Positions 3,788 to 64,000 of a DNA stretch of 64,000 nucleotides are shown piece after piece. Both the position numbers and the translations under genes were made by a program. The stretch is from an uncultured Actinomycetota bacterium. Its GTDB lineage: Bacteria > Actinomycetota > Thermoleophilia > RBG-16-64-13. How positions within the stretch are numbered: position 1 is the stretch's first letter; each line of letters begins with the position of its first letter. The stretch spans positions 1,121,879 through 1,185,878 of the forward strand of contig CAWCLH010000020.1 in NCBI GenBank assembly GCA_963796315.1, given 5' to 3'. The notes below the pieces were generated by a model that ran no database searches, was not told the DNA's origin, and saw only the letters and a list, made by a program, of their open reading frames with translations.

Positions 3788-8044
<4,257 letters not shown>

Positions 8045-22824: not shown

Positions 22825-22839
22825 GTTGTGGGGGCTCGG

Positions 22840-39084: not shown

Positions 39085-39831
39085 CTATCGCATCAGGTGT
39101 TGATGACGAAGACGCTCGATCCTTGAGGTCAGATCCATCTGGCGGTAGCGCACGATCAAGAGGTACGCGTAGACGAGCGTGATGGCGAACAGCGAGAACA
39201 TCAGCACGAGCGTCATCCGCGAATCCAGGTTGATGGCGTTCTCGGTGATGACGGTGGGGTGGATGGTCCGCCACCAACGCACCGACATGAAGACGATGGG
39301 TACGTCCACCCACCCCACGATGCCGAAGACCGCCGCCACCCGGGCCGTCTTGTGCCCGGGCTGCGACGCGGACCGCAGCATGAGGTAGGCCACGTAGATG
39401 AACCACAGCACCAGGGTGGTGGTCAGACGCGGGTCCCACGTCCAGTAGGCGCCCCAGATGGGCCGGGCCCACAGGGGACCGGTGATCAGGGTGACGGTGG
39501 TGAAGACGACGCCGATCTCGGCCGACGCGGCCGCGATCCGGTCGTAGCGCAGGTCCTTCTTGATCAGGTAGAGGATGCTCGCGATGAACACCACCGTGAA
39601 GGAGGGCCCCAGGGCGACCCAGGCGCTGGGGACGTGGAAGTAGAAGATGCGCTGCACGTCGCCCATCTGGGCCTCGGTCGGCGCGTAGAGCAGCGCCCCG
39701 TAGAGGGCGATGACGACGGACACCAGGGCCGCGACGCCCAGAGCGTCCAGCCAGAGTGAGCCGCCGGTGAGGCCGCGGGTCCCGGTCGAGGGCAGGCCGC
39801 GGTCGAGGGTCTGGTCGTGTGCCATGCTCAT
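39085..39831 (-). CDS. ccmC: Haem exporter protein CcmC
   Basis: 248 aa with the WWD motif WGAYWTWDPRLTTTLVLW. Confidence 0.9.
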   Translation of the reverse strand: MSMAHDQTLDRGLPSTGTRGLTGGSLWLDALGVAALVSVVIALYGALLYAPTEAQMGDVQRIFYFHVPSAWVALGPSFTVVFIASILYLIKKDLRYDRIAAASAEIGVVFTTVTLITGPLWARPIWGAYWTWDPRLTTTLVLWFIYVAYLMLRSASQPGHKTARVAAVFGIVGWVDVPIVFMSVRWWRTIHPTVITENAINLDSRMTLVLMFSLFAITLVYAYLLIVRYRQMDLTSRIERLRHQHLMR

Positions 39832-40505
39832 TCCTCGAGGACGAAGTCGAAGGTCATGATCGAGAGTGCCAGGAAGATCACGTCATAGACTACCAGCAGT
39901 AGGAGCCAGGAGGAGCCCTCGCCCAGCGAGCGCCCGTCCAGCACGTGCCCCGACGACTTGGCGGCCGCCAGGATCACCGGCACCATCACCGGGAACAGCA
40001 GGATGGACAAGATGACGTCACGGGCCTTGAGCCCCACCGACACTGCGGAGAACAGGGTGCCCACGCTGCTGAACCCGATGGTGGCCAGCACCAGGATCAA
40101 GCCCAGCGGGGCCACGGTGCGGGCCAGGTCGACGTTGTAGAGCACCGCGAAGAAGAAGAACACCACGACGCCCATCAGCAGCAGGAAGACGAAGTTGCCC
40201 AGGAACTTGCCCAGGTAGATCACGCTGCGGTCCACCGGGCAGAGCAGCAGCCCCTGCAGGCAGTCGTTCTCCTTCTCCGAGGCGAAGGAACGGTTGAGGC
40301 CCAGGATGCCGGCGAAGGTGAACGCGGCCCAGAGCACCCCCGGCTTGACCAGGTTCTCCTCCCGCAGGCCCGGCTCGATCCCGAAGTTGAAGATCAGGAT
40401 GACCAGGAAGCCGAAGAGAAGCATGGAGAAGACCATCTCGCGGGTGCGCAACTCCCCCACGATGTCCTTCCAGGCGATGGCCCACGCCCGGTTCAGGAAT
40501 CCCAT
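39828..40505 (-). CDS. ccmB: Haem exporter permease CcmB
   Basis: ATG 40505 gives MGFLNRAWAIAWKDIVGELRTREMV. Six TM helices. Overlaps ccmA and ccmC. Confidence 0.85.
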   Translation of the reverse strand: MGFLNRAWAIAWKDIVGELRTREMVFSMLLFGFLVILIFNFGIEPGLREENLVKPGVLWAAFTFAGILGLNRSFASEKENDCLQGLLLCPVDRSVIYLGKFLGNFVFLLLMGVVVFFFFAVLYNVDLARTVAPLGLILVLATIGFSSVGTLFSAVSVGLKARDVILSILLFPVMVPVILAAAKSSGHVLDGRSLGEGSSWLLLLVVYDVIFLALSIMTFDFVLEE

Positions 40506-41264
40506 CGGTAGTCCTTCCCCACGTACTCGAAGTACGTCTGCTCGAAGGCCGCCCGGTCGATCTGGCCGATAGGCCGACGGAACACGGTCTTCCCCAGCAC
40601 CTGAATGGACACCTCGTCGCACATCTCGAGCCCCTGCTCCAGGTTATGCGTGGTCAGGACGATGCTCCGTTCCCCCGTGTGCAGGGTCTCGAGGACGCTG
40701 CGCAGCATGCGGGAGGCATGCTGGTCCAGGCCGGTGTAGGGCTCGTCCAGGAACATGATGTCCGGTTCGTGCAGCAGGGCGCGCGCGATGGACAGGCGTT
40801 GCTGCATGCCCCGAGAGTACGTGGCCACCCGGTCCTCCATGCGGCCGTAGAGCCCGACCTCCTCCAGCAGCTTCGTCGCCCGGTCTTCCAGGTCGGCGAC
40901 GCCGTACATCGTGCCGTAGAAGGTCAGGTTCTCGAAGGCGGAGAGGCTCGGGATAGAGGTAGGTATTGTGCGAGATGACCCCGATGCGACGGCGGAGGAT
41001 GTCCGCTCCCTGCACCACGTCGGTCCCCGCCAGCAGCACCTGACCTTCGGTGGGCTTGATCTGGGTCGAGAGGACCTTGATCAGCGTGGTCTTGCCGGCA
41101 CCGTTCGGTCCGAAGATGGTGAGGAACTTACCCTGCTCCAGCTGAAGGTCCAGACCGCGAAGCGCCGCGAAATGGCCAAAGTACTTCCATAGGCCCCGGA
41201 CCTCGATGGCGAGGTCCGGGGTGGGTGGGCCGGGCTCCAGATTGTCAGGGGCAGCGACGGCCAA
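40493..41264 (-). CDS. ccmA: Haem exporter ATPase CcmA, frameshift near 40949-40952
   Basis: TTG 41264 lies 2 nt after the upstream stop. FGPNGAGKTTLIKVL. After ISHNTYLYP the alternative frame gives SLSAFENLTFYGTMYGVADLE...YSRGMQQRLSIARALL..MFLDEPYTGLD. Confidence 0.8.
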
Positions 41265-41266
41265 GG

Positions 41267-41879
41267 TCAGGCGGTCACCTCGGCGCCGCAGCCTCCGCAG
41301 AAGCGCGCCCCCGCCTTCAAGGGGGCGCCGCACTCGTCGCACGCGGCCCCCGCGTGCCCGTTGGGAGAGGTCTCCATCACGGCGACGGCCGACTGCTCCA
41401 GCAGGTGGTCGCCGCAGCCTGCGCAGAAGCGGGCCCCCGCCGGGTTGAGGTGGTCGCAGGCCAGGCAGACCAGCTGCCCGTCGTCCGCCGGGGCAGCTCG
41501 CCGCGGACGCTTCGGAGACGCGGCCGCTTGCTTCTGCGCGACAGCCGGCCGAGGCTGCCGCGCCGCGGTCTGCGTGGCCCGGGGCCGGCTCTTCGCCTTG
41601 GGCGCGGGCCGCTCGGCTTCGGCGATCGCTTCCAGGATCTCCACGGCGTTGGCCCGGTACTTGAGCGTCGAGCTCCCGGAAGTCGGACTCGGACAGTTTG
41701 CCCGTCCGGAAGTCGAACTCGAGCTCCTTGAGCGCCGAGTAGGTCGACTCCTTCCGCCGGTGCAGCTCCTCGACCTCCTCGGGAAGCTCCATCTCTTCTT
41801 CGTCGGTCCACTGGCGCAGCAGCGGATAGCCTACGAAGGCCACTGCCGCCAGCGCCATGAGGATCTTGATCAGCATCAC
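41267..41879 (-). CDS. CcmI-like N-terminal module fused to a double zinc ribbon, frameshift near 41668-41671
   Basis: MMLIKILMALAAVAFVGYPLL...YSALKELEFDFRTGKLSESDFREL. After the shift, TLKYRANAVEILEAI...LVCLACDHLNPAGARFCAGCG...ACDECGAPLKAGARFCGGCG. Confidence 0.6.
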
Positions 41880-41922
41880 GGTCGTTCGTCTCCTCGGTCT
41901 CGCCGTCGCGGACGCCTGGGTC

Positions 41923-42419
41923 TCAGTCGAAGTCCTTCAGCTCGTCCTCCATCTTGTGGACGAGCTCATCGCGCACCGGGGACTGCAGCTCCACCTGTCC
42001 CTCGGGGGTCGCGGCCACGAGCGCCGCGCGGCGCTTGGCCCAGCCGCCGATCAGAAAGTAGATGGCGATACCGCCGCCGATCAGGACGGCGAAGGGGATC
42101 AGCCAGGCGGCCAGGTTGAAGCCGCTCTTGGTGGGCGCGGCCAGGACACGGTCGCCGTATTTCGTGACGTACGAGTCGATCACCTGCTGAGGCGTCTCGC
42201 CCGCCGCCAGCTGGGCGTGGACGTCCTGCTTCGCAGGGATGCCCCACTCGCAGTTCTGGTGCGGGCACTCCTTGAGCACCGCGTTGCAGCCGCACAGGCA
42301 CATGATCTTCGAGGTCACCGACGAATCCGCAGGCGCCGCCTGTCGCCGGCGCGGTCCCCAGAAGGCCGGCGCCGAGCGCTAGGAGGAGCACCGCCGGGCC
42401 GAGCCACAGGCGCCGAAAA

Positions 42420-42430
<11 letters not shown>
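41923..42430 (-). CDS. ccmH: CcmH/NrfF-like protein, frameshift near 42333
   Basis: ATG 42430 overlaps the ccmF stop by 11 nt. The signal peptide [29 protein letters not shown] is in one frame. The mature part VTSKIMCLCGCNAVLKECPHQNC...AAWLIPFAVLIGGGIAIYFL is in another (ORF 41923..42318). Confidence 0.7.
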
Positions 42431-44423
<1,993 letters not shown>

Positions 44424-44526
44424 GTGGTTGGTTCCTCCGTGTCACCTGGGTCTGGGATCCGCCAGTGCCGACGTCCTCGCCGTCCGCCGACGAAACGACG
44501 AGACGAACGGCGCGACGGCACCTCTT

Positions 44527-44973
44527 CTACTTGCCGGTCGACGTGCCCGTCGGCGCCTCGGACTTCGCCTTCGCCTCGTACTTGGACGGGCACTTGGCGA
44601 GCAGATCGACCGAGCTGAACTGCTTGCTCTGCAGGTAGTCACCGGTCACGACCACCTCGGGGGCGGGCTCGTCGGCACGCGGCTCCCGGAAGGTGTCGGG
44701 CACCGGGCCGGTGTGCGACACGAGCAGGACCTTATTCGGGGAAGCCTTGTCGTGGATCTGGAAGGTGATGGGCTGGCCCACGCCGCCCTTCTTGATACTG
44801 CCGACGACCAGGTCCCCAGAGACCTTGACGTTCTGGGACGGGCCCTTGGCCTGAAGCTCGGTGACGGTGTAGTAGTAGACCATGTTCCCCCGCACCGCGT
44901 AGAACGCGAGGGAGGCGATGGCGGCCACGATCACCAGGCCGCCGATCACGAACTTCAGCTTCTTGTTGCCCAT
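44527..44973 (-). CDS. ccmE: Haem chaperone CcmE, Cys-type (CxxxY) variant
   Basis: ATG 44973 follows GGAGGAAGG. TM anchor, and VDLLAKCPSKYEAK where canonical CcmE has HxxxY. Confidence 0.85.
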   Translation of the reverse strand: MGNKKLKFVIGGLVIVAAIASLAFYAVRGNMVYYYTVTELQAKGPSQNVKVSGDLVVGSIKKGGVGQPITFQIHDKASPNKVLLVSHTGPVPDTFREPRADEPAPEVVVTGDYLQSKQFSSVDLLAKCPSKYEAKAKSEAPTGTSTGK

Positions 44974-45025
44974 ATGCGCCTGTCCTTCCTCCATGGATCC
45001 TCCGACCCGCATCGACCGTACAGGA

Positions 45026-45502
45026 TCAGTACAGCAGTCGCTCGAGGCCCGTCCCACTCATCACCCGGTTGGTCACTTTCTCCGGGAACAGTTTTTCCGG
45101 GCATTTTACCAAAATCTGCGTAGCCTCGAAGACGCCGCCCTTGCCCGTGGAGCCCGTCACCACCACCTCTTGGAAGGGAGCGAGGCGTTCGGGGTAGGGC
45201 CCGGTGTAGACGACGTCCATGCGGCCGCCCTTCGATCCCTCGAGGACGAAGCGGACCTCCTGCGTCGACGGGTCCTGGTTCAGGCTGCTCTCGGCCACCC
45301 GGCCGCCGACCCGGACATTGGACAGCGTACCGGCCGCCTTGGCCTCGTCGACGGTCTGGTAGAAGTCTCCACCGACGGTCAGGAAGAGCACCAGCCAGAG
45401 CAGGGCCAGCACGATGACCACGATACCGACGATCAGCTTCCACCTGCGCCACCAGGGGGTCGAGACGGGGGGCTGCAGGTCCTGGGTCTCGGTCACCGTC
45501 AC
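45026..45502 (-). CDS. Second CcmE-like paralog (C-P-E-K-L, no Tyr at +4)
   Basis: GTG 45502 follows AGGAG. TM WKLIVGIVVIVLALLWLVLFL. FYQTVDEA, and TQILVKCPEKLFPEK at the haem-binding position. Confidence 0.7.
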   Translation of the reverse strand: MTVTETQDLQPPVSTPWWRRWKLIVGIVVIVLALLWLVLFLTVGGDFYQTVDEAKAAGTLSNVRVGGRVAESSLNQDPSTQEVRFVLEGSKGGRMDVVYTGPYPERLAPFQEVVVTGSTGKGGVFEATQILVKCPEKLFPEKVTNRVMSGTGLERLLY

Positions 45503-47455: not shown

Positions 47456-48328
47456 TTATCGAGATGTCTTCTTGCCACGGCGAACAGGGGAGGCTGGGCT
47501 CTTGACCGCGCCTCCGCTCTTGGTGCTGCTTCGCTGCCTTCTTCTGTCGGTGGGGGCCTGCTTCCCCGGCCTCCGTGCCGGCGAGGAGGCAAGAGCCACG
47601 GGCGAGCGTTCCAGCCGCCAGATGAGGATGCCTCCGACGATGATCAATCCGATGCTGATCCATTGCTGCTGGGTCATCCCCAGCAGCACGGGGACGTTCG
47701 TCCGTACGAACTCCACGAGGAAGCGCTCGATCCCGGCCAGGACCAGGTAGACCGCGAAGAGCGAACCGCGACCCCGAAGCCGGGGCGCGAACACGTAGAT
47801 CAGCAGGAAGAAGATGCCGAGCGAGAGGATGACCTCGTACAGTTGCGTGGGGTGGACCACCACGGTGGTCGGCGGCTCCCCCTGGGGGAAGGACATCCCC
47901 CAGGGCAGGTTCGTCGGCTTGCCGTAGTCGTCGCCGTTGAGGAAGCAGCCGATCCGGCCCACGGCATAGCCCATCGCCAGAGCGGGCGCGACCACGTCGG
48001 CGGTCGTGGCTATGCGGAGTCTGGACAGCCGCGCCGCGATGATCACTCCCAGCGTGCCGCCGAAGAGCCCGCCGTACCACACCAGCCCGCTCCCGTTGAA
48101 GGCGGCGACGCGGAACTGATCCGGGTGGAGGATCAGGTAGTGGAGCTTCGCCCCGACCACCCCGCCCACGATGGCGCCGATCAACAGGTTGTAGACCAGT
48201 TCCGGGTTCTCGCCCAGCCGTCGCAGACGCCACCACGCGACGATGCCGGCCGCGACGAAGGCAAGGGCCATCATGACCCCGAATGAACGGACCGTCACCG
48301 GCCCAAAGTGGAAGAGCACCGGATGCAT
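47456..48328 (-). CDS. lgt: Prolipoprotein diacylglyceryl transferase
   Basis: 290 aa with GPVTVRSFGVMMALAF, WYGGLFGG and GRIGCFLNGDDYGKPT. Confidence 0.9.
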   Translation of the reverse strand: MHPVLFHFGPVTVRSFGVMMALAFVAAGIVAWWRLRRLGENPELVYNLLIGAIVGGVVGAKLHYLILHPDQFRVAAFNGSGLVWYGGLFGGTLGVIIAARLSRLRIATTADVVAPALAMGYAVGRIGCFLNGDDYGKPTNLPWGMSFPQGEPPTTVVVHPTQLYEVILSLGIFFLLIYVFAPRLRGRGSLFAVYLVLAGIERFLVEFVRTNVPVLLGMTQQQWISIGLIIVGGILIWRLERSPVALASSPARRPGKQAPTDRRRQRSSTKSGGAVKSPASPVRRGKKTSR

Positions 48329-48382: not shown

Positions 48383-49069
48383 TTACTGAGTGGTCGTCGG
48401 GGTGGTGGCGCCGTGCGGGTTCGATCCGGTGGAACCACCGGAACTCGGGTTGTCCATCAGGCTGATGAACTGCGCCGCCAGCGAGCCCAGCTCGCTCTTG
48501 GGATCGATAGCCGCGACCTTCTCCCACGTCGCCTTCGCCTTGTCGCGCTCGTTCGTGGAGAAGTACACGATGGCCAGGCTGTACAGAGCGGCCTGGTTCT
48601 TGGGATCCTGCTGGCTCAGCGCCAGCAGTTGCTTCTCGGCTTCAGCGCTCTTGCCCGCGTTGAAGTCGAGCATCGCCAGCCCCACCTTGGCATCGACGTT
48701 CTTCGCGTCGACCGCCAGAGCTTCATTGAACTTCTTCGAGGCGTCGGCCGTCCGGTTGGCTTCCACGTAGGCTTGGCCGAGACTCAAGAGGGTGGCGACG
48801 TCCTTGGGGTTCTTCTTGTAGGCGGCCTCGAGGGTCTTCAGCGCCTCGGTGTTCGCCGGTGCCGCAGTCGCCGTGGTCTCTCCGCTGATGGGGACATGAC
48901 CGGGCGGGACGGTCGCATCGGGCGAGATGGGAGGAGCGGATGCCGACGAATTGGTACCCGCGGCGACGTCAGTGCTATTGCCGTTGTTGTTGTTGCTGCT
49001 CAACACCACGATGAGCACGACGACCACCACCGCGGCGACGCCGATAGCGATCAGGTTCTTCCTATTCAT
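48383..49069 (-). CDS. Membrane-anchored TPR-repeat protein (NrfG/CcmI C-terminal-like)
   Basis: ATG 49069 follows GGAGGAAAGG. One TM, then TPR-like LSLGQAYVEANRTADASKKFNEALAVDAKN and LYSLAIVYFSTNERDKAKATWEK. Confidence 0.65.
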   Translation of the reverse strand: MNRKNLIAIGVAAVVVVVLIVVLSSNNNNGNSTDVAAGTNSSASAPPISPDATVPPGHVPISGETTATAAPANTEALKTLEAAYKKNPKDVATLLSLGQAYVEANRTADASKKFNEALAVDAKNVDAKVGLAMLDFNAGKSAEAEKQLLALSQQDPKNQAALYSLAIVYFSTNERDKAKATWEKVAAIDPKSELGSLAAQFISLMDNPSSGGSTGSNPHGATTPTTTQ

Positions 49070-49270
49070 GCGGGCTTGTTCCTTTCCTCCACGACGAGGC
49101 TTGTGAAGCGGGGTACGAGACGCCGGGAATGCTACCTGATGCGACGTCTGCTGCCAAGAGAACCCCATGCCCCGGCACGCGTGCCGCGCCGCTTCCCTGC
49201 GGCCTTCGTTCGGACGCGGGAAAGGCGGGACGAGTTCCCGACGTCGGGACGTCTCACACCGCGTATACTC

Positions 49271-49351: not shown

Positions 49352-49546
49352 GTGAAGGTCGCGCAGGTCGATTTCGAGAAGTGTCAGGCGTGTAGGGAAT
49401 GTCCGCCCAAGAAGGCCTGCCGCACCAAGGCACTCATCAAGATGGGGCCTGACGAGGAAGCCATCGTCAAACCGTCGGACTGCATGGGCTGCGGCGACTG
49501 CGTCGAACCTTGCCCCTACGGCGCCGTCAGCATCAAGGAGAGCTAG
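49352..49546 (+). CDS. Small 4Fe-4S ferredoxin
   Basis: 64 aa with CQACRECPPKKAC and CMGCGDCVEPCP. Confidence 0.8.
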   Translation: MKVAQVDFEKCQACRECPPKKACRTKALIKMGPDEEAIVKPSDCMGCGDCVEPCPYGAVSIKES

Positions 49547-51236
49547 ACCCTCCCTTCGCCGGCGATCGTCGGGACACGCCGTCGCGCCGTCGGGAAGTGT
49601 CGCGGCCCGCGGCGGACGCGAGGATCAACTCCAGCAGTCTGGATTCGTCCACGCGGCCCGGTTCCGCCGGGACTCCATCCACCACCACCAGCGGCACCTG
49701 GCCGACCTGATAGCGCTGCACCAGCTCCGGGAAATCAGACGCCGCCACCATGTCGACGGTGATCTTCGGCGAGGCCAAAGAGAACTGGTGAGCCAAGCGC
49801 ACCACCCCGGGGCAGACCGGGCAGGTGGACGTGGTCAGCACTTCCAGGCGCACCGGCACCCGAAGCCGCGACAACGCGCTGCGAGTCTCGTCGGACACCT
49901 CGCCGGGCGCCTCGGCAGACAGATCGACCAAAGCGTCGACCAGGGGGCCGAACTCATAGCCTTCCGGCACTCCGAAGAAGCGGAGGCGAGCAGCCTCACC
50001 CGGACGCGCCGCCAACGTGGCCGGGATGCGCTCGACCCCGAGCTCCTCCGCGAGCTCCTTCTCCGTCAGCATGTCGTGCACGTCCAGCTCCAGCTTGGCC
50101 GACAACGAGGCGAGGTCCTCGACCAGCTGCCGAGCCTCCCGGCACGCTTCCGTCGGGAGCGAGCGTCCGGTGCCGGCCAGCTGGGTCAGATGGACGAGGC
50201 GCACCGGTCCCGCCAGCTTCTCCTCGAAGAGCGCGCTGAGCTCCTTCTTGTCCTCATCGGCCAACGCCTGCGGTGCGGCCCGACCGCCGGACGCAGCCGT
50301 TCGCTCGGCAGTACCGGAAGAAGCCGTCCCCCGGACGGCCGGCCTCAACAGCTGGAGCGCCTGGAACGCGGCGATCTGGCCCTGCCCCACCGCCTTGGCG
50401 ATCTGGTAGGGCTCGCCCGTGGCATCGCCGGCGGCCAGCACGCCGGGCACCGAGGTCTGCAGGGAGGCGTCGACGACGATATGTCCGCCCTCCACCTCCA
50501 AGCCCTCCAGCAGGTCGTGAGGGGCGACGCTGCGCCGGTAGACGAAGACTCCGTCGACGACCACCTCTTCGTCGGGATGGAGCACGTGGACCTTCCCGGA
50601 CTCGTCCCGGAAGAGCCGGCCGGGACGCTTCCGCGCCAGCACCCGCACGCCGGCCGGCAGGTGGTAGGGGCCGCCGTAGAGGGGAAGGTAGACCAGGGAT
50701 GAGGCGAAGTCCTGGGCCAACACCGTGGCCTCCTCCTCCCCTTCCTCCAAGTAGCTGATGAAGGCCAGGTCCTTTCCGGCGAACAGACGGCCGTCGCAGC
50801 TGACACAGTAGGCCACGCCCCGGCCGACCAGCTCGTCCTCACCCTCCAGGTCCGGCTCCCGATAGAGCCCGTTCGCCAGGATGACCACTTTGGCTTCGTA
50901 CATGTCCTTGTCGGTGAAGAGGACCAGTCGGTCGTCCTCCCGGTAGATCTTCGAGACCTTCTCCCGCAGCAGGGGCACGTTGAACCGCTCGAGATGCTCG
51001 ATGAAGGCGGACGCGAGCCCCTCCCCGCTCGTGAAAGTGAACCCGGGATAGTTGGGGACCTTGGGCGCCTTCCGCGTGTACGAGAACGGGCGCTGCCCGT
51101 CCATCACCACCACGCTCTTCTTCCGGTTGGCCAGATTGATGGCGGCGGAGATGCCGGCCGGCCCCGCACCGACCACCACCACCTCGTAGTGGGAGGACTT
51201 CTCGGCGGGATCGGCGCCGGTATTGGGATCGCTCAC
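49533..51236 (-). CDS. Thioredoxin-reductase-like flavoprotein fused to a PDO/glutaredoxin-like double thioredoxin-fold domain
   Basis: GTG 51236 follows GGGAGG. VVVVGAGPAGISAA, redox CVSC, AAGDATGEP. The second dinucleotide motif reads LAFISYLEEGEEEA instead of GGGxSAxEEA. C-terminal TSTCPVCPGVVRLAH...GQVPLVVVDG. Confidence 0.75.
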   Translation of the reverse strand: MSDPNTGADPAEKSSHYEVVVVGAGPAGISAAINLANRKKSVVVMDGQRPFSYTRKAPKVPNYPGFTFTSGEGLASAFIEHLERFNVPLLREKVSKIYREDDRLVLFTDKDMYEAKVVILANGLYREPDLEGEDELVGRGVAYCVSCDGRLFAGKDLAFISYLEEGEEEATVLAQDFASSLVYLPLYGGPYHLPAGVRVLARKRPGRLFRDESGKVHVLHPDEEVVVDGVFVYRRSVAPHDLLEGLEVEGGHIVVDASLQTSVPGVLAAGDATGEPYQIAKAVGQGQIAAFQALQLLRPAVRGTASSGTAERTAASGGRAAPQALADEDKKELSALFEEKLAGPVRLVHLTQLAGTGRSLPTEACREARQLVEDLASLSAKLELDVHDMLTEKELAEELGVERIPATLAARPGEAARLRFFGVPEGYEFGPLVDALVDLSAEAPGEVSDETRSALSRLRVPVRLEVLTTSTCPVCPGVVRLAHQFSLASPKITVDMVAASDFPELVQRYQVGQVPLVVVDGVPAEPGRVDESRLLELILASAAGRDTSRRRDGVSRRSPAKGGSSSP

Positions 51237-51416
51237 GACGACCTCCCATGGAGCGACACGGACCGGGTGACCTCGGCACAGACCTCGCGCACACGGCAGC
51301 ACCGGTCCTGAACAGACGATGGGGCGTCGCCCCTTCGAGCGACGCCCCATGACTGTACCCACTTTCGAGCCAACTAACGGCCGACCCTCCGCTGCCCTCA
51401 GACGGCTCGTCCGGCG

Positions 51417-51965
51417 TCAGGCATCGAACGAGTCGAGTTCCTCCTGCACGCGGCGACGGTACTCCGAGTCCGGCGCGTCGGGCCCGGACGAAGGAGTGGC
51501 AACCGGCACCGGCGTGGACGAGGCGGGGCCGCGCCAGCGCCTGATGGCCACCAGCACCACGCCTCCCGCCAGCGCTACGCCCACCGGGGGAAGCACGTAG
51601 GCCAGCCAGTTGAATCCGCTGGCCCGGGGCTTGGTCAGGATCTTCTGCCCGTACTGGGCGATGAAGACGTCCAGCACCTGCTGCTCCGTGTTGCCCTGAG
51701 CAAGCAGGCTACGGACCTGTGCCTTGGCCAGGACGACCTCCTCGCTGAGGTGAGCGTCGGACAGCGGCTGCGTCCAACAGCAGGGGCCCATCAGCTTGGT
51801 CTCGAGCCTCTTCGCTGTCGCTTCTTGCTCCGGCGACAGGGCTACGTCCACCGCCTCCTGCGCGGCGGCCGGAGCCGCCGCCACCAGGCTCGCGAACAGG
51901 ATCAAGCACAGGACGAAGATGCCCCGAGGTCTCACGGCGCCCAACGGGCGCCCTAGTGCGCTCAA
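51417..51965 (-). CDS. CcmH/NrfF-like protein with a vicinal Cys pair
   Basis: 182 aa with signal peptide and LMGPCCWTQPLSDAHLSEEV where CcmH has LRCxxCQxQSxxDS. C-terminal TM WLAYVLPPVGVALAGGVVLVAI. Confidence 0.65.
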   Translation of the reverse strand: MSALGRPLGAVRPRGIFVLCLILFASLVAAAPAAAQEAVDVALSPEQEATAKRLETKLMGPCCWTQPLSDAHLSEEVVLAKAQVRSLLAQGNTEQQVLDVFIAQYGQKILTKPRASGFNWLAYVLPPVGVALAGGVVLVAIRRWRGPASSTPVPVATPSSGPDAPDSEYRRRVQEELDSFDA

Positions 51966-52168
51966 CCGAAGCTCCCGGTATGGCCGCAGCCCGCCGGAGC
52001 GGACGAGCCGCCCCCGGCCGTGGAGCCACAGAGAAACCCGGTGTACCGCTGCTCGACGTCACGGCTACCGCACTCGGGGCAGACCTTCTGGTCGTCTTTC
52101 AGGAAACCCTGGACGAAGAGCTCGAAGTCCTGCCCGCATGCATCGCAACGCAGATCGTAGGAGGCCAT
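51962..52168 (-). CDS. FmdB-family zinc-ribbon protein
   Basis: 68 aa starting MASYDLRCDACGQDFELFV...VCPECGS. Confidence 0.75.
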   Translation of the reverse strand: MASYDLRCDACGQDFELFVQGFLKDDQKVCPECGSRDVEQRYTGFLCGSTAGGGSSAPAGCGHTGSFG

Positions 52169-52497
52169 CAGTCAACCACTCCCAGCTGTCGCAGTTCGTT
52201 GACGATCCAGGCGAACGAGAGCACGGGCGGGTGCTTCAGCGTGTCGCCGGAGAGCACCATGGGCACGGGGCTGCCCGCCTCGATCGCCTCACGGAGCACA
52301 GGATAGTCCGCCAACTCGGGGCTGGCCACGTCGAGATAGGTGACGCCGACACCCTCGCCGTAGTCCTGCTCCAGGTAGCGGTTGATGTAGCCGACCGTCT
52401 CCTCCAGAGACAGAGGGGGCGCTCAACCACCGCCGCGGCAGGCGTCGAACACGCGCGACCCGACCACGATCAGCTCTTTCGTCGTGACATTCTCCAT
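52168..52497 (-). CDS. Small (109 aa) thioredoxin-fold-like ORF with in-frame TGA (52423-52425): candidate selenoprotein, C20-x4-U25
   Basis: ATG 52497 lies 9 nt after GGAGG. MENVTTKELIVVGSRVFDACRGGG-TGA-APPLSLEETVGYINRYLEQDYGEGVGVTYLDVASPELADYPVLREAIEAGSPVPMVLSGDTL... in one frame. The stop overlaps the fmdB start (TGATG). No plausible start codon follows the TGA. Overall layout resembles YuzD/DUF1462 proteins. Confidence 0.6.
52395..52413 (-). promoter_or_regulatory. Candidate SECIS-like hairpin downstream of the UGA in the small ORF
   Basis: mRNA CUGUCUC-UGGAG-GAGACGG: 7-bp stem (one G.U) with a 5-nt loop, starting 9 nt after the UGA. Confidence 0.45.
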
Positions 52498-52514
52498 GCT
52501 GAACCCTCCTCGGC

Positions 52515-52841
52515 CTAGGCTAGGCCGAACTCTTTCTCGTAGTCCTTCTGGCTGCGCGCCCCGACGATCTGACTCTTGACCTTGCCGGCCTCGAACAGGA
52601 TGACCGTGGGAATGCTCATGATGCCGTAGCGAGCGGCGATCTCCTGATTCTCGTCGACGTTGAGCTTGGCGACCGTCACCTTCTCGTTGTGCTCTACGGC
52701 GAGCTTCTCGAGGACCGGACCTACCATTTTGCACGGGCCGCACCACGGCGCCCAGAAGTCGACCACCACAGGGCCCTCCGCCTGGATGACCTCTTTGTCG
52801 AATGACTGGCTGTCCAGATCCTGCACCATGCCACTACCCAT
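52515..52841 (-). CDS. trxA: Thioredoxin
   Basis: ATG 52841 follows [30 protein letters not shown]. Confidence 0.93.
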
Positions 52842-55697: not shown

Positions 55698-56355
55698 CTA
55701 CTCGGCGCGGACCTTGATCAACAGGCGTTCGGCCGCTGTCAGTCCCACGAACACCCGGGCGCCCGGACCGAGGGACACGCATACCGGACCCCGAAGCGGC
55801 GCGTAACCCACCACCTCCACCTTCACCCCCGGCACAAGGCCGAGCTCTTCCACGTACCGGAGCAACTCCTCGTCCTCCGCCACGACGCAGCGCAACACGC
55901 CGCGAGCCCCCACCGGTAGCTCGCTCAACCGGGCCAGGATCTCCGGCTCCCCACTGGACCCGGGGATGGGATTGCCGTGCGGACAGGTGGTGGGGTAGTC
56001 GAGGACCTTCGCCAAGCGCTCCTCGACCTCCGGCGAGATCACGTGCTCGAACTTGCAGGCCTCGTCGTGGGCCACCGACCACGGCATCCCCAGGATATCG
56101 GTCAGCAGGCGCTCGGACAGCCGGTGGCGGCGCACCGAGGACCTCCGCGGCCTCGAGTCCCTTGGGCGTCAGCACGACCTCCTTGCCGTCGCCGGACTCG
56201 ACAAAGCCTTCGTGGCGAAGCCGGCGAAGCATCTCGGTGACCGTGGGCGCGGCGACGTTCAGGTCCTCGGCCAGCCGTGCGCCGATGACCTTGACGCCCC
56301 GGTGCTGGAGCTTGTAGATGGACTCGAGGTACTCCTCGATGGCCTGCGTAGGCAT
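55698..56355 (-). CDS. DtxR/MntR-family metal-dependent repressor, frameshift at 56135-56136
   Basis: ATG 56355 follows [29 protein letters not shown]...[17 protein letters not shown]. After EAAEVL the alternative frame continues [18 protein letters not shown]...CPHGNPIP and an SH3-like C-terminus. Confidence 0.8.
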
Positions 56356-56454
56356 CGTCGCCCACCTCCACACCGCATGACTTCGGCCGTCGGTCCCCTG
56401 CGCGTGCCCTGCTCGGAGTATACCAACGCCCCCTCCAGACGATAGACTGGCACC

Positions 56455-59400
56455 ATGAGCGAACCCGCCCACGCCAGAAACCCGGAGGTCATCGACGGTC
56501 CCCAGGACGCGTCGGAGCACGCGGCTCGAAGCGAACGGGCGACCCTCCCCCGGAGGACCCGGACCCCCGGTCTCCCCCGGTTGCTGCAGTATCTTATCGA
56601 ACGCATGACCGCCCGCTCCCAAGGCGAACCGGAAGGTAACGTGGTCCGTCCTCGGTTCGGGGGCGGCAAACGAGGGGGTCGAAGGGGAGGGCGGCGCATC
56701 GGTCTTCTCTGGCTGCTTGCCGCGATACCCGTCCTGGTCGTCCTCCTCAGTATCCTGGCACGCGTCTGGACCGACGTGCTCTGGTTCCAGGAGGTGGGGT
56801 TCACCCAGGTGTACTGGACCCGCATCGTCGCGCAGGTCCTGACCGGCCTGGCGGGCGGGGTGCTGTTCTTCGCGGTGTTTGCGGTCAACCTGCTGCTGGC
56901 GTGGCACTTCTCGCCCAAGACGCTCCTGAGGGGAGACCTGGACAGCGAGAACCCCGTGCTGGAGGTGGTGGAGCGCATCGAGGGCCGGTCGGTACGCTGG
57001 ATCCTTCTGGGCATCTCCGTCTTCCTGGCCTTCTTCTTCGCCCTGAACGCCGGCGGGGCCTGGCAGGACGTCCTCCTCTTCCTCAACCGGGTGGACTTCG
57101 GCTTCAAGGACCCCATCTTCGGCCGGGACGCCTCGTTCTTCGTGTTCGTCCTTCCGCTCGCGCAGCGCCTGCTGTCCTTCCTGTTGGTCACCCTGATCCT
57201 CACGTTGATCGCCGTCGTCGTGCTCTACCTCGTGGACGAGGCGATCACCTTCCGGGAGAACCGGATAGCTCTGGCCGCCCACGTGAAGGGCCACCTCTCG
57301 GTGCTGGCCGCCTTCGCCCTGGTCCTGAAGGCGGGCGACTACCTGCTGTCCACGTGGCAGCTCAACTACTCCGCGCGGGGCACCGTGTTCGGAGCCAGCT
57401 ACACCGACGTCCACGCGGAGCTCCCCGTGCTGCGCATCTTGGCGATCGTGGCCCTGGTGTCCGCACTCCTGTTCCTGGTCAACATCCGCTACAAAGGTTG
57501 GCGGCTGCCCCTGATCGCCATCGGGCTCATGGCCGTGTTCTGGCTGACGGCCGGCAACATCTATCCGGCGATCGTCCAGCAGTACCGGGTCTCCCCCAAC
57601 GAGATCGCGGTGGAGTCGCCGTACATCGCCGACAACATCAAGGCCACCCGCTGGGCATTCGGGCTGGAAGGCGTCACGCAGGACCCCTTCCCGGTGGCTC
57701 AGGACCTGACCCTCGCCGAGGTGCAGGCGAACCAGGGCACCGTCAAGAACATCCGCCTCTGGGATCCGACTCCCCTCCTGGATACCTACACCCAGATCCA
57801 GGAGCTGCGTCCCTACTACGTCATCAAGGACGTGGACGTCGACCGCTACTCGGTCAACGGCGACTATCGTCAGGTGATGCTGGCTGCCCGGGAGATGGAC
57901 ACCGCCGGCCTCCAGCCCCAGGCGCGCACCTGGGTCAACCAGCACCTCACCTACACGCACGGATACGGCGCGGTGGTGGCAGCCGTCAACGAGGTGACCG
58001 GGGAGGGTCTGCCCTTCTTCTTCGTCAAGGACATCCCGCCGGTGACCTCCACCAACCTCAAGATCACCCGACCGGGTATCTACTACGGGGAGGTGGGCGG
58101 CGACTTCGTCATGGCGCGGACCACGGCGAAGGAGCTCGACTATCCCAAGGGCAGCGAGAACGTCTACACGACCTACACAGGCAAGGGCGGCATCCCCATC
58201 GCCTCCTTCGCGCGTCGCGCGGCCTTCTCCTGGCGATTCGGCACGCTGAAGCTGTTGCTCTCCGACTACCTGACACCCGACTCGCGCTTGATGTTCCGGC
58301 GGTCTTTGAGCGAGCGAGTCCACGCCATCGCCCCGTTCTTAGGACTGGACCGCGATCCCTACATGGTCATCAAGGAAGACGGCGGCCTGGTCTGGGTCTG
58401 GGACGCGTACACGCTGTCCAGCCGCTTCCCCTACTCGCAGCCACGCGCCAACGGCACGAACTACATCCGCAACTCCGTCAAGATCGCGATCGATGCCTAC
58501 GACGGCACGGTCACCTTCTACCAGATCGATCCCAACGACGCGGTGGCGAACGCCTGGGGCAAGGTCTTCCCCGGGCTTGATGACGCCGGGCGACCAGATG
58601 CCGCAGCAATTGCGCGACCACCTGCGCTATCCGGAGGACCTCTTCCCCTGCAGTCCGAGGTGCTCTCCACCTACCACATGACCGACCCGCAGGTCTTCTA
58701 CAACAAGGAGGACGTCTGGGTCATCCCGCGCGAGCAGTACGCCGGCGAAGAGGTGCCGGTCGTCCCCTACTACGTGATCATGGCGCTGCCCGGGCAGCAG
58801 AAGGAAGAGTTCCTGCTGCTCCAACCGTTCGCCCCGCTGCGCAAGGACAACATGATCTCCTGGATGGCCGCGCGCATGGACGGCGACGCGTACGGCCAGC
58901 TGAAGCTGTACGAGTTCCCCAAGGACACCCTGATCTACGGGCCGGCGCAGATCGAGTCACGCATCTCGAACGACCCGACCATCTCCGCTCAAGTCACCCT
59001 GTGGGACCAGGCGGGGAGCCGGGTGATCCGCGGCAACCTGCTGGTCATCCCCATCGAAGGGAACCTGGTCTACGTCGAGCCGCTCTACCTTCAGGCCTCG
59101 CAAAGCCCCATCCCCGAGCTCAAGCGGGTGATCGTGGTCTACGGGCAGAAGGTGGTGATGGAGCCCACCCTCGGCGAGTCGCTCGACCGCCTCTTCCGGC
59201 CCACCGGCGGCACGACCACCACCACCCTGGAGCGGCCGGGTACCACGACCACCACGACCACCCCCTCCGGGGGTACGACCACCACGACCACCCCGCCGAC
59301 GACGGTTACCACGACCACGCCCCCGACCACCCTGGGTCCCGGCAGCACCGGGACCACCATCGCCCCCGGGGCTCCCCTCCCCACCGACCGCGCGGCGCTG

Positions 59401-61786: not shown

Positions 61787-64000
61787 CTACAGACCCTGGG
61801 GCACCAGCCGGGCGTCGGAACCCTCGAGCCGAGCGAGGCGGCGGTGCCCCGAGGCCTTCTCCACCGATACTCGCGTGGCTCCCCAAGCCAGCTCCCCGGT
61901 CCCGGCCACCTCCACCAGTTCCAGCAGGTCCAGCGGGTTGACCCCACGACCTTCCGCGTAACGGCCGTAAAACCGATGGCCCTGCCCCAGGGGGATGGCG
62001 ACCGTGTCGGGACGCGCCGCGGGGTAGACGTAGGCCGGCACCTCGACTGAACCCGCGGGAGAGCTCACCTTGATCAGGTCGCCCGTCGTCACGCCTAGCT
62101 TGTCGGCTACGGTCGGGTGGATCTCCGCCCAGCTCCACCAGCCGATGGAGGTAAGGGTGGCCGGTACCTCTTGGAGCCAGGAGCGATTCGCGCCCCGACC
62201 GCCGCCGATCAGCGGGTGCGGGTAGATCTCCAAGACGTAGGGTCGCGCGGCGGCGTCGCCGCCCAGAGGCGGCGTCGTGCGAGGATCGGCGTGAGCCGGG
62301 ACACGGACGCCGGTCAGCCCTACCGGCATGCCCAGGCTCGACTCAGCCGTGGGTACGGACGTCTGCCCCGGCATCTGCCACCAGCCACCGAACTCCTGGA
62401 AGGTGCGGACGAACGCATCGGCATCGGTCGTCTGGATCGAGCCTCCCGGTGCGGTGCGCAGGGTGGCTATCCTCGCCTTGACGAACTCCACCTCGTTCTT
62501 CCAGGGTAGGGCGGCCGCGGCCTGTCCGCCCAGGGCCTTCGCCACGAAGAGCAGGATGTCGGCGGAGGAGCGGGTGTCGTAGAGTTGGGTGACCACCGGC
62601 TGCTGAGCACTGACCGTCGCCACCGGAGCCCCCGCCTGTGGCAGGGAGTAACCCCAGGTCTCCAGCGGTGTGGGACGGGGCAGGACCAGGTCGGCCAAAG
62701 CCATCTGGGTGTCGGTAGGGAACGGCGAGCAGTCGACGATCAGCGGGACCTTAGCCGCTGCCTGCTCGAATCCCAGTGCTTGCGGAAGATCGTGCGCGGG
62801 GTCGCCGTCCAGCACCAGCAGCACCTTGACCGCGCCGCTCTGCATTGCCTTGATCAGGTCCCGCACGTCCGCGAACGAGGAGACCGAACCGGCCTGCAGC
62901 ACGTCCTGCGCCGCAGCCGGCGGCGACGTCACGACCGGCGCCCTGCCCAGAGTGGTGCGTTGGGCACCCAGCAGCAGGTCGAGGGCCATGACGGCCCCCA
63001 GGCTGTCTCGGCCGTTGGCGTAGCCGGTCAGTCCTCCCCCGGGGAGCGCGAGTGGGGCCCGGGCCGCGCCGAGAAGCCGGGCCACCTGCACAAGCTCCTC
63101 GAAGGAGAGCCCCATCGAATCGGCCAACTCGCGCGGCTTGACTCCGGCGAACACGGCGTCGACGCCCGGGACGCCAGGCTTGGCGGCCAGACCCTCGTCC
63201 AGGATCACCCGACCGAGCACCAGGGCGACCTCACCCTCACGCCCGGGGGGTGTCGCGATCCATCGGTCCGCCACCGCAGCGGTGGCCGAGAAGCGGGACG
63301 AGACGTGGATCACGCGGCCGCGCCCCTGGATGTTCCGGCGGAGCTGGGCATACTCGCGACCGAAGGAGACCGGCGAGAGCCAGTGGTCAAGGAAGTCGGC
63401 GGCGAAGGAGACCACCAGGTCCGACGAGCCCACGGCGAAGGAGGGCATGCCGGCTTCCCCCGTGGTCGCGCCCATGAGGTCCTGGAGCAGGGTCTCGCCC
63501 TGGGTGGCACGGGCCACGTCCCATACCACCGGCCGGGTGTTCCACGTTCCTCCCCCGCTCCCGTTCACGGCGGTCAGGAATAGCCCGACCAGCTGAGAGA
63601 GGTGGTCGGACAGGTGCCCTCCGCCCCAGACGGCCACTCCGCCCTTTCCGCCCGCGCCCCGCACGGCATCGGTCAGCTTGGCCAACCCCTTGTTCCAGTC
63701 GGTGCTGCCGAACGCGGCCTCACGGCCGGAGCGCTCGCGGGGGCCGGGGACCCGGTCCGGGTTGTAGAGCCCCTGCAAGGCCGCCTGCCCCATCGCGCAG
63801 AGCCGCCCTTGGTTGACCGGATGACGCGGGTTCCCCTCGATCTTGTGGGCCCGTCCGCCCATGAGCTTCACCAGGATGCCGCAGCCGGCCGAGCACTCCT
63901 GACACGCGCTGGCGAAGTACGTGAAGACGCCCGCGACCTGGTCCTCGGGTGAGTCGAGGAAGGGCACCAGGCGTTCCTCGGCCCGGTCGCCGCCACAGCC
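61787..64000 (-). CDS. Molybdopterin-dependent oxidoreductase catalytic subunit (DMSO-reductase superfamily); N-terminus beyond the window
   Basis: The frame is open to the window edge. FeS motif CQECSAGCG...C. 726+ aa, intact. Subfamily not resolved. Confidence 0.75.
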   Translation of the reverse strand, partial: GCGGDRAEERLVPFLDSPEDQVAGVFTYFASACQECSAGCGILVKLMGGRAHKIEGNPRHPVNQGRLCAMGQAALQGLYNPDRVPGPRERSGREAAFGSTDWNKGLAKLTDAVRGAGGKGGVAVWGGGHLSDHLSQLVGLFLTAVNGSGGGTWNTRPVVWDVARATQGETLLQDLMGATTGEAGMPSFAVGSSDLVVSFAADFLDHWLSPVSFGREYAQLRRNIQGRGRVIHVSSRFSATAAVADRWIATPPGREGEVALVLGRVILDEGLAAKPGVPGVDAVFAGVKPRELADSMGLSFEELVQVARLLGAARAPLALPGGGLTGYANGRDSLGAVMALDLLLGAQRTTLGRAPVVTSPPAAAQDVLQAGSVSSFADVRDLIKAMQSGAVKVLLVLDGDPAHDLPQALGFEQAAAKVPLIVDCSPFPTDTQMALADLVLPRPTPLETWGYSLPQAGAPVATVSAQQPVVTQLYDTRSSADILLFVAKALGGQAAAALPWKNEVEFVKARIATLRTAPGGSIQTTDADAFVRTFQEFGGWWQMPGQTSVPTAESSLGMPVGLTGVRVPAHADPRTTPPLGGDAAARPYVLEIYPHPLIGGGRGANRSWLQEVPATLTSIGWWSWAEIHPTVADKLGVTTGDLIKVSSPAGSVEVPAYVYPAARPDTVAIPLGQGHRFYGRYAEGRGVNPLDLLELVEVAGTGELAWGATRVSVEKASGHRRLARLEGSDARLVPQGL

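Follow-up and report, generated by a model that had tools for sequence, protein, structure and literature searches.

A Probable, So Far Uncatalogued Selenoprotein Family of Predicted Thioredoxin Fold in Uncultured Actinomycetota

Does an in-frame TGA at codon 25 of a short gene, here termed X, end a 24-residue peptide, or is it read as selenocysteine (Sec) within a longer protein, and what could such a protein do in its setting, flanked by genes for a thioredoxin and a zinc ribbon? We address these questions for a 64-kb stretch of DNA (hereafter the window) from an uncultured Actinomycetota bacterium. Our reading is that X very probably represents a so far uncatalogued selenoprotein family with a small thioredoxin fold, present in a group of uncultured Actinomycetota.

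The Reading Frame of X and Its Conserved TGA

On the evidence of sequence and translation, the putative selenoprotein gene X spans 52168..52497 of the minus strand and comprises 109 codons, from an ATG at 52497 to a TGA stop at 52170-52168. A Shine-Dalgarno sequence (AGGAGGG, 52504..52510, minus strand) lies 6 nt 5' of the start codon (52497-52495), and orthologs carry GGAGG-type sequences at the corresponding place. The frame reads MENVTTKELIVVGSRVFDACRGGG up to the in-frame TGA (52423..52425, minus strand), which corresponds to residue 25 in the motif D-A-C-R-G-G-G-U-A-P-P, and then continues for 84 sense codons; its stop overlaps the ATG (52168) of a 68-residue FmdB-type zinc-ribbon open reading frame in the form TGATG. 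The residues around Sec are VFDAC-R-GGG-U-APPLSLEETVGYINR, and the product, predicted to be cytoplasmic and 109 residues long, contains one Cys and one Sec. All these elements of the original prediction, from the ribosome-binding site to the overlap, were recovered on the minus strand. The same holds for its statement that there is no credible restart after the TGA: the nearest in-frame start, GTG 52329, is located 32 codons downstream, and these 32 codons encode the best-conserved part of the protein.

Relatives were sought in a representative protein library with the 84 residues that follow the TGA as query. The TGA is kept at the Sec column in 15 of 15 distinct close orthologs, all from Thermoleophilia/Gaiellales-type MAGs and metagenomes, and more distant relatives (L021/L022, L023, L026 and L027) share this position; in L024 and L028, both of Firmicutes type, an in-frame TGA is found in the same loop, some 11 residues upstream. 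Every relative whose DNA was read has the codon (the 15 close orthologs and five more distant forms), and it recurs in over 20 independent assemblies that stem from separate projects and lineages. Constraint is equal on its two sides, with a pN/pS of 0.34 for the 18 upstream codons versus 0.34 for the 83 downstream codons (all pairs, 15 sequences). Every relative examined shows the TGA, the coding sequence on either side of it and the hairpin described below.

The original prediction had called for a search for homologs with TGA and with Cys, and both kinds were found, the latter among distant relatives. L030 reads SSG-C-GPSSSQEE where the window protein reads GGG-U-APPLSLEE, which places Cys at the Sec column. 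In the Firmicutes-type clade, P0029 (GG-C-SGCASA) and L028 (GG-U-SGCASA) form a Sec/Cys pair. P0018 has CC-ASP opposite GU-APP of the window protein and thus Cys at the Sec position, in a loop whose alignment is uncertain by one residue. A metagenome scan returned one Cys form usable as a Sec/Cys pair; its search pattern contained a Cys codon, so that only Cys forms were detectable. Two features set the family apart: its main, actinobacterial clade yielded no Cys form of X, and in a sister subfamily Sec is the sole chalcogen residue.

This sister subfamily (L026 and L027) carries a lone Sec and no cysteine at all. The C-x4-U site noted at the outset is indeed present in X of the window, but it did not hold up as a conserved functional unit, as relatives display CxxU, Cx3U or Cys-free variants (DAFRGGG-U, DMWRGGG-U). 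We therefore dropped C-x4-U as a defining redox motif comparable to CxxC. The conserved motif is R-G-G-G-U, and the C-x4-U spacing belongs to one subfamily. The existence of a Cys-free subfamily shows that an intramolecular redox pair of Cys and Sec is not required.

Two simpler explanations of the TGA need to be weighed against recoding. The codon could be an ordinary stop that separates a 24-residue peptide from a downstream protein with its own internal start, for instance at GTG 52329. Public gene calls of relatives (P0001-P0007 and others) would agree with this, as they all start downstream of the TGA and yield proteins of 53-81 residues, and TGA is a common stop in the window, where it ends 17 of 37 genes. 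However, the starts chosen by the gene callers vary between loci and fall within the most conserved peptide, LSLEETVGYINRYL, and in the window the frame offers no start for 32 codons. The 18 codons before the TGA are as constrained as those after it and supply strand 1 of the fold, and homologs that have Cys where X has the TGA are read through without a break; we consider an ordinary stop very improbable. Alternatively, the TGA could reflect an assembly or sequencing error for TGC or TGG, a pseudogene lesion or a reassigned code, for which the Trp at the Sec position of two database proteins from Firmicutes-type relatives (P0033 and P0034) might be taken to speak. Yet the DNA of P0033 has a TGA, so its Trp is a gene-calling artefact; the codon recurs across so many independent assemblies, and it serves as the stop of ordinary genes in the window, both of which count against this explanation. 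The probability that we assign to this explanation is practically negligible. The public relatives of X, every one of them truncated at or after the TGA or given a spurious Trp, are an instance of the systematic mis-annotation of selenoprotein genes, and a curated HMM could be built that would allow annotation pipelines to call X-type genes correctly.

The Downstream Hairpin and Sec Decoding

A bSECIS-like hairpin is located at 52395..52413 of the minus strand. Its 7-bp stem (CUGUCUC/GAGACGG) pairs 52413-52407 with 52401-52395 and encloses the loop UGGAG (52406-52402); the stem begins after a 9-nt spacer and the apical loop starts 16 nt after the UGA. The published bSECIS consensus comprises a loop of 3-9 nt, a stem of 4-16 bp and a G in the first two loop positions, together with a UGA-to-loop distance of 16-37 nt and a minimum free energy (MFE) of -7.5 kcal/mol or lower (PMC13188914). 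The hairpin of X falls within this consensus in stem, loop and spacing, and the MFE of -14.8 kcal/mol for the 45-nt stretch that contains it lies below the cut-off. A 7-bp hairpin at this distance had been predicted, and its presence is now corroborated by comparison among relatives: across 16 sequences in one register, paired cells make up 98.2%, whereas slid controls reach 30-61%. Covariation is seen at one pair, 14-30 (UG, UA, AU and GC), and four of the seven pairs never vary. The more distant relative L023 keeps the hairpin despite a different encoded peptide (SQVET versus SLEET).

The stem doubles as coding sequence for the conserved peptide LSLEET, so that constraints on RNA and protein are partly confounded. 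The evidential weight of the hairpin comes from its conservation in relatives and not from single-sequence folding, in which it is not statistically exceptional for a GC-rich sequence (z = -0.96). An Rfam scan of the window at gathering thresholds found nothing.

Two further genes in the window have an in-frame TGA at a known Sec position, namely the HdrA gene (DCSM-U-ILSPK) and a gene for a ResA/TlpA-type UxxC lipoprotein (FWASW-U-PTC); the TGA of the latter is conserved in L018 and L027. From these Sec genes we infer that the organism decodes Sec and possesses the corresponding machinery. None of selA, selB, selC and selD was found in the window or in the other loci retrieved, and ARAGORN scans of the window and of 18 loci gave no tRNA-Sec. 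The conserved TGA with equal selection on both sides, the covarying hairpin, the distant Cys homologs and the two other Sec genes in the window all bear out the earlier proposal of a selenoprotein, and we hold with high confidence that X is a true one.

The original prediction had also stated that X does not belong to a described selenoprotein family. This was judged from NCBIfam release 20 (June 2026; NCBI models for naming bacterial proteins) and from the table of a 2026 review, which catalogues 119 prokaryotic selenoprotein families (PMC13188914, Table 1). The statement stands: the window protein has no Pfam or NCBIfam match, and none of the 119 families corresponds to X or to a DUF1462 selenoprotein (PMC13188914, Table 1). 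No literature link of DUF1462, YuzD or ArsD with selenoproteins was found. If confirmed, X would add one more family to the prokaryotic selenoproteome as counted in that review and would extend the use of Sec into the uncharacterised YuzD/DUF1462 fold.

Predicted Fold and Relation to Known Families

In order to place X structurally, we modelled the Cys homolog P0018, which is 38% identical to the window protein, with AF2 and searched with the model in Foldseek. The model (pLDDT 82.8) has the order beta-alpha-beta-alpha-beta-beta-alpha of a thioredoxin fold, with low confidence in the motif loop (pLDDT 65-68). Its top PDB match is 1xg8 (S. aureus SA0789, DUF1462), with TM scores of 0.72/0.70 at 24% identity, followed by thioredoxins and ArsD. 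On the basis of this model, X is predicted to adopt a thioredoxin fold of the YuzD/DUF1462-ArsD branch. The YuzD/DUF1462-type fold that had been suggested for X is thereby upheld, and some distant members of the family reach Pfam DUF1462 itself. These members are recovered by a profile of the window's family at E values of about 1e-11 to 1e-29; P0033 alone passes the gathering cut-off of PF07315 (26.1 bits against 25 bits), and P0018 reaches E = 5e-4. The window protein itself, with U written as C, gave no match in Pfam and NCBIfam scans even at E <= 1-10, and neither it (at E <= 10) nor its close orthologs matched DUF1462 (PF07315). A profile search of PDB sequences returned only noise (E > 1), and phmmer with P0033 did not reach 1xg8.

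Several known families resemble X without accommodating it. With YuzD/DUF1462 (PF07315, 1xg8), X would share, as judged from the model, a short thioredoxin-fold topology and reactive residues in the loop after strand 1, but it has Sec in place of Cys (R-G-G-G-U-x-P) and a fixed trxA/zinc-ribbon neighbourhood. ArsD (PF06953/NF033727) is a thioredoxin fold of similar size with functional Cys on a flexible loop after strand 1, and the structures 3kgk and 3mwh match the P0018 model with TM scores of 0.59-0.68; in contrast to ArsD, X lacks the Cys12-Cys13-Cys18 triad, an ars operon and an ArsA partner. ArsD HMMs did not match the window protein, and distant members gave E values of 0.01-0.19, far below threshold.

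Other small, single-domain thioredoxin-like (seleno)proteins, such as the HUIPC-motif family (NF047660), SaoT (NF040730) and the Sec.1/Sec.2 forms of PF13192, carry UxxC, CxU or UxC at the helix cap, whereas in X the motif is RGGGU and lies on a loop, and a distal Cys may be present or absent. The window protein matches none of these models and lacks the HUIPC motif; P0018 scores 24.3 bits against NF047660 (E = 2.6e-5), for which the cut-off is 105 bits. PF00085 gave no match and PF13192 matched a single family member (E = 0.091), and helix 1 carries no U/C-x-x-C/U motif at its N-cap. The FmdB zinc-ribbon family (TIGR02605), to which the obligatory neighbour of X belongs, is catalogued with Sec-containing (UxxU) members (PMC13188914). 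The ribbon protein of the window, however, has Cys at all four positions and is a partner, not a selenoprotein.

Neighbouring Genes and Possible Role

X lies in a string of genes on the minus strand. The trxA gene (52515..52841, 108 residues, WCGPC; TIGR01068 1.5e-36) has its stop 17 nt before the ATG of X, and the FmdB-family zinc-ribbon gene (51962..52168; PF09723 5.7e-12, TIGR02605 7e-11) encodes a protein with CxxC...CxxC and a conserved C-terminal tail, C-[SG]-H-x-G-F-G. A CcmH-like membrane protein (51417..51965, start codon uncertain; PF03918 1.5e-22) follows, in which PCCW replaces the canonical CxxC; PCCW is conserved in the window protein and seven orthologs. The next gene (49533..51362, start codon uncertain) encodes a fusion of a TrxR-like flavoprotein and a protein-disulfide-oxidoreductase (PDO) with CPVC, matched by Pyr_redox_2 (7e-23), TIGR02187 (1.2e-49) and TIGR01292 (8.6e-46). 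Genes for a TPR protein of CcmH/CycH type (48383-49168) and for Lgt (47456-48328) end the string.

All four neighbours named by the original prediction (trxA, the FmdB ribbon, a CC-type CcmH-like protein and the TrxR-PDO fusion) proved to be present, although not all of them are invariant. The order trxA-X-zinc ribbon, with trxA immediately 5' and the ribbon gene directly 3', is found in every actinobacterial locus examined. The CcmH-like gene after the ribbon gene and TrxR-PDO downstream are found in most orthologous loci but not in all; both are absent from the immediate neighbourhood in L016, L018 and L027. Other lineages have Lgt directly 3' of the ribbon gene, followed by ResA(Sec)-CcdA. 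Judged by gene order, the tightest partners of X are trxA and the zinc-ribbon gene. The wider neighbourhood is devoted to thiol reduction and cytochrome c maturation (CcmH, a CcmI-like TPR protein, Lgt, Sec-ResA, CcdA and CcmABCEF), a placement which suggests that cytochrome c maturation depends on selenium in Thermoleophilia-like bacteria.

We propose that X is a thioredoxin-coupled selenol protein that works with the adjacent zinc-ribbon protein, and that X and its neighbours may constitute a thiol/selenol relay. UGA codon 25 would be recoded to Sec with the aid of the bSECIS stem-loop, and Sec would reside on a loop rich in glycine (R-G-G-G-U-x-P) that joins strand 1 to helix 1 and whose counterpart in the model of the Cys homolog, predicted with low confidence, bears Cys. 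The selenolate, a reactive nucleophile, could then form a transient selenosulfide with the thiol of a partner or substrate. In the subfamily of the window this bond may be resolved by Cys20; where Cys is lacking, as in the sister subfamily, this step would fall directly to thioredoxin, made from the same transcript, and/or to the tail of the zinc-ribbon protein, which bears a Cys and whose translation is coupled to that of X. The TrxR-PDO flavoprotein would then restore reduced thioredoxin. Because the surrounding genes serve thiol reduction outside the cytoplasm and the maturation of cytochrome c, X likely acts on the cytoplasmic, electron-donating side of this pathway. We lean slightly towards the whole of this explanation, a recoded Sec protein with a thioredoxin-coupled selenol redox role beside a thiol-reduction pathway; the gene structure, the TGA conservation, the SECIS-like hairpin, the fold class and the gene order are shown, and from them the redox chemistry, the partners and the pathway are inferred. 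The redox role as such is a tenable possibility that we rate a little short of even.

The chief competitor leaves the selenoprotein intact and changes its task: X could act as an ArsD-like chaperone or binder of soft metals or metalloids instead of in thiol-disulfide redox, with a flexible loop whose Sec (and Cys) ligates As(III), Cu(I), Hg(II) or selenium/sulfur species and passes them to a partner. ArsD is a clear structural neighbour of the P0018 model, and distant members match ArsD and ArsD-related models weakly, with scores far below threshold. Like ArsD, X has its reactive residues on a flexible loop that follows strand 1, and not at a rigid CxxC helix cap, but the Cys triad of ArsD is missing. 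A lone Sec without Cys, as in L026 and L027, would suit a ligand or carrier. With regard to genomic context, P0018, the closest full-length Cys homolog, is preceded by genes for an ArsR-family regulator and an MTH895/ArsE-type thioredoxin-like protein, and a CsoR-CopZ pair lies 2.5 kb from X in the window and in orthologous loci. This pair, however, forms a separate, divergently arranged unit, no arsA, arsB or metal-efflux gene is co-oriented with X, and X is invariably flanked by thioredoxin and zinc-ribbon genes, in surroundings of thiol reduction and cytochrome c maturation. A role in metal or metalloid handling appears unlikely to us, if worth serious attention.

Returning to the thioredoxin-coupled selenol role, we speculate that X and the ribbon protein could provide a strictly selenium-dependent cytoplasmic entry (TrxR-PDO -> TrxA -> X-Se/ribbon) into the route CcdA -> ResA(Sec) -> CcmH(PCCW) for cytochrome c maturation in Sec-using Actinomycetota. 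This extension is doubtful and we would give it rather long odds; if true, it would imply a relay that uses selenols on either side of the membrane and would for the first time assign a function to the YuzD/DUF1462 fold and to FmdB-type ribbons. The fixed pairing of X with a thioredoxin and an FmdB zinc ribbon supplies testable partners for two functionally uncharacterised families, and a natural fusion of a zinc ribbon with an X-like domain exists in P0050.

A conserved in-frame TGA and its hairpin

The candidate selenoprotein gene (52168-52497, minus strand) is preceded by the Shine-Dalgarno sequence AGGAGGG at 52510-52504, starts with ATG at 52497 and reads MENVTTKELIVVGSRVFDACRGGG up to an internal TGA (52425-52423). 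From there, 84 sense codons follow in the same frame, until a stop TGA at 52170-52168 whose final A is also the first base of the start codon ATG of the following ORF. The original prediction had described these elements exactly as they stand on the minus strand, and its remark that no credible restart follows the internal TGA agrees with the earliest in-frame start codon being a GTG 32 codons downstream. A word-indexed search among 5.8 billion proteins retrieved as relatives only truncated products of 75-81 aa; the contig DNA behind them carries the same in-frame TGA after a conserved strand-like peptide, in the pattern GELVVVGSHAYDACRGGG-TGA-APPLSLEETVGYINRYL. In a GTDB scan with one genome per species, TGA occupied the selenocysteine (Sec) column in all 12 loci found, each of them from a MAG labelled Thermoleophilia, Gaiellales, Actinomycetes or Actinomycetota. 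Across all pairs, pN/pS is 0.34 for the 18 codons before the TGA and equally 0.34 for the 83 codons after it; translation of the upstream piece therefore runs in the same frame, under an equal constraint. There is no reassignment of TGA, since 17 of the 37 Pfam-supported ORFs in the window end in this codon.

The predicted 7-bp hairpin 9 nt 3' of the TGA was located at 52413-52395 (CUGUCUC, loop UGGAG, GAGACGG). The bacterial SECIS (bSECIS) consensus comprises a loop of 3-9 nt with a G in loop positions 1-2, a loop pattern N1-G-[G|U]-N-N2 and an MFE <= -7.5 kcal/mol (PMC13188914). The hairpin fits this consensus, with a loop U-GGA-G and a UGA-to-loop spacing of 16 nt; folded singly, its sequence is unexceptional (z = -0.96). 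When the 45 nt from the TGA were compared in a gap-free alignment of 16 sequences, 98.2% of cells in the stem were paired, versus 30-61% with the partner slid by 1-3 columns. Four of the seven stem pairs show no variation, one is G-C or G-U, and another occurs as U-G (8 sequences), U-A (6), A-U (1) or G-C (1). The related locus L023 keeps the hairpin under a different peptide (SQVET versus SLEET), a sign that the RNA itself is under selection.

Sec and Cys forms of a probable new family

Distant relatives, collected by a profile search and by an exhaustive HMMER search for which the 84 residues following the TGA served as query, also carry an in-frame TGA, at varying distance from the nearest cysteine: ESCSSG-U in loci L021/22, FRCTG-U in L023, and DAFRGGG-U (L026) and DMWRGGG-U (L027) in a second actinobacterial subfamily that has no cysteine in the whole protein. 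The C-x4-U site emphasized in the original prediction is thus present in the window protein but not invariant, and judged from the sequences the invariant element is R-G-G-G-U-x-P. Cys-containing homologs have ORFs uninterrupted at the Sec column, namely the proteins P0018 (DCRSCC-ASP) and P0029 (GG-C-SGCASA) and locus L030, in which SSG-C-GPSSSQEE aligns residue for residue with GGG-U-APPLSLEE. The distinct close orthologs number 15 in all, and each has TGA at this column.

A Firmicutes-type (Syntrophomonas-like), DUF1462-like clade has in-frame TGAs in SGG-U-SCSGC or GG-U-SGCASA (L024/L025, 4001-4201 and upstream; L028, 627-971) as well as true Cys forms (GG-C-SGCASA); the Cys forms are at L029, 1589-1939, and L030, about 3890-4246. 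Its genes are annotated as 66-aa fragments, and three loci have a MiaB-like radical SAM gene downstream. In this clade (GG-U-SGC) there is thus a second set of Sec proteins, related to the first and likewise unlisted. The W of its member P0033 at the Sec column is a gene-calling artefact, as the P0033/L028 DNA reads TGA and a code-4 model was presumably picked for the short contig; P0034 has W at the same column, the TGA being shown in DNA for P0033 alone. Since a Sec TGA has been called W in at least one public gene call, a metagenomic 'Trp' at a Sec/Cys column can hide a selenoprotein.

The window protein matches no Pfam or NCBIfam model. Distant members weakly match the DUF1462 (YuzD) model (P0033, 26.1 bits, just over the cut-off; P0018, E = 5e-4), and they also give sub-threshold matches to the ArsD, ArsD-related VcpD and HUIPC selenoprotein models. 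The full-length Cys homolog P0018, modelled from a 34-row alignment (mean pLDDT 82.8, pTM 0.74), adopts a beta-alpha-beta-alpha-beta-beta-alpha topology, for which Foldseek ranked Staphylococcus aureus SA0789 (1xg8, DUF1462; TM 0.72) highest in the PDB, followed by thioredoxins and then ArsD (TM about 0.6). On this model, the YuzD/DUF1462-type thioredoxin fold anticipated earlier is borne out. The Cys/Sec motif occupies the loop that joins strand 1 to helix 1, a low-confidence part of the model, and would there lie closer to the ArsD arrangement than to that of thioredoxin, whose CxxC forms a rigid helix cap.

A 2026 review tabulates 119 prokaryotic selenoprotein families and subfamilies, each with a Pfam, NCBIfam or CDD identifier; none of the entries is DUF1462, YuzD or ArsD-like, and neither RGGGU nor Cx4U is among the motifs given (PMC13188914). 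BSepDB limits its annotation to previously reported families. In full-text searches, neither DUF1462 nor YuzD came up together with selenoprotein or selenocysteine, the papers naming both ArsD and selenoprotein had no bearing on bacterial selenoproteins, and nothing relevant connected Thermoleophilia with selenoproteins. NCBIfam release 20, which is later than Haft & Tolstoy 2025, has no model matching the protein. Because of this absence from the table, the literature searched and NCBIfam, we classify the protein as a new family, as originally suspected, within the well-known kind of thioredoxin-fold selenoproteins decoded through bSECIS. We consider the finding real and its first interpretation essentially right; new bacterial selenoprotein families still turn up regularly.

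Genetic context and possible role

Each of the neighbours named in the original prediction was recognized by a domain model: the adjacent classical thioredoxin gene trxA (TIGR01068, 1.5e-36), the FmdB-type zinc ribbon (51962-52168, minus strand; TIGR02605, 7e-11), whose start is overlapped by the selenoprotein stop, the CcmH-family protein (51417-51965, minus strand; PF03918, 1.5e-22) and the fusion of a TrxR-like flavoprotein with a PDO domain (49533-51362, minus strand; TIGR02187, 1.2e-49). Every actinobacterial locus, whichever of the two subfamilies it belongs to, has the order trxA, selenoprotein, ribbon. The adjacent ribbons (window, L001, L008-L017, L027) have in common a Gly/Ser-rich tail that terminates in C-[SG]-H-x-G-F-G, and the 180-aa metagenomic protein P0050 has a ribbon fused N-terminally to the selenoprotein-like domain, a domain order opposite to the gene order and hence not a read-through artefact. 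Two arrangements occur downstream. In one, CcmH(PCCW) is followed, in some cases after a [NiFe] hydrogenase insert, by TrxR-PDO, a TPR protein and Lgt; the other consists of Lgt, ResA(Sec) and CcdA. Within the window itself, the genes CcmC, CcmB, CcmF and CcmE for System I cytochrome c maturation (39085-45057, minus strand; actinobacterial-type genome) lie 7-13 kb beyond, and ResA(Sec)-CcdA 29 kb off. The theme of this context is therefore the provision of reducing power, both for thiol-disulfide proteins outside the cytoplasm and for the maturation of cytochrome c.

The selenoprotein itself is predicted to be cytoplasmic, as direct inspection reveals no signal peptide. In the most economical reading, its selenolate would act as the nucleophile and form a selenosulfide with a partner, which Cys20 would resolve where present and TrxA or the ribbon tail where it is missing; recycling of TrxA would in turn fall to the TrxR-PDO flavoprotein. 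The chief alternative is a carrier or ligand role like that of ArsD. It draws support from the structural resemblance to ArsD, from the flexible motif loop, from the Cys-free subfamily and from the ArsR/ArsE context of P0018; against it, no ars or efflux partner is present. The clean, conserved genetic context makes the function testable.

The Ccm, CcmH and TPR genes form one long minus-strand region. In the CcmH-family protein and seven orthologs (loci L008-L019), P-C-C-W-T-Q replaces the canonical CxxC heme-lyase/thiol motif; we know of no described vicinal-Cys variant of CcmH. The fusion protein is a single polypeptide in which the flavoprotein part (CVSC) is combined with a two-domain PDO/AhpF-N-like module (CPVC); it is conserved in orthologous loci, and in L001 and L014 a [NiFe] hydrogenase operon is inserted upstream.

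Probable selenocysteine use by the organism

Neither the window nor any retrieved locus has a selA, selB, selC or selD gene. A window scan for TGAs flanked by coding signal on both sides yielded exactly two further cases, both on the minus strand. One is an HdrA (heterodisulfide-reductase subunit) homolog at 2-1582 (NCBIfam HdrA2, 3.8e-153) that is incomplete at the window start and whose TGA (1372-1370) lies within the canonical Sec motif. The second is a ResA/TlpA/DsbE-type lipoprotein at 22840-23340 (TGA 23142-23140), a UxxC selenoprotein with lipobox VTGC and the motif FWASW-U-PTC, directly upstream of CcdA (22099-22839, minus strand; DsbD_TM). The families of both are tabulated as selenoproteins, with Sec in precisely these places (PMC13188914). 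L018 (FWASW-U-PSC) and L027 (MTHT-U-PSC) keep the ResA TGA, and in public gene calls this gene is broken up into a pair of ORFs, about 68-94 aa long. The molybdopterin oxidoreductase at 61787-64000 (minus strand; Fe4S4, Molybdopterin and Molydop_binding domains) has no in-frame stop, so it is no formate dehydrogenase of the Sec type; FdhD is encoded at 20953-21864.

Genes for a Se_S_carrier (PF11823) and a DsrE-like protein stand between UPF0182 and a DtxR-type repressor in L001 (1089-1725, minus strand) and are absent from the equivalent place in the window (56135-56455). The DnaB replicative helicase at 10502-12352 (minus strand) contains an intein (Intein_splicing, 8.8e-16; ORF residues 415-549).
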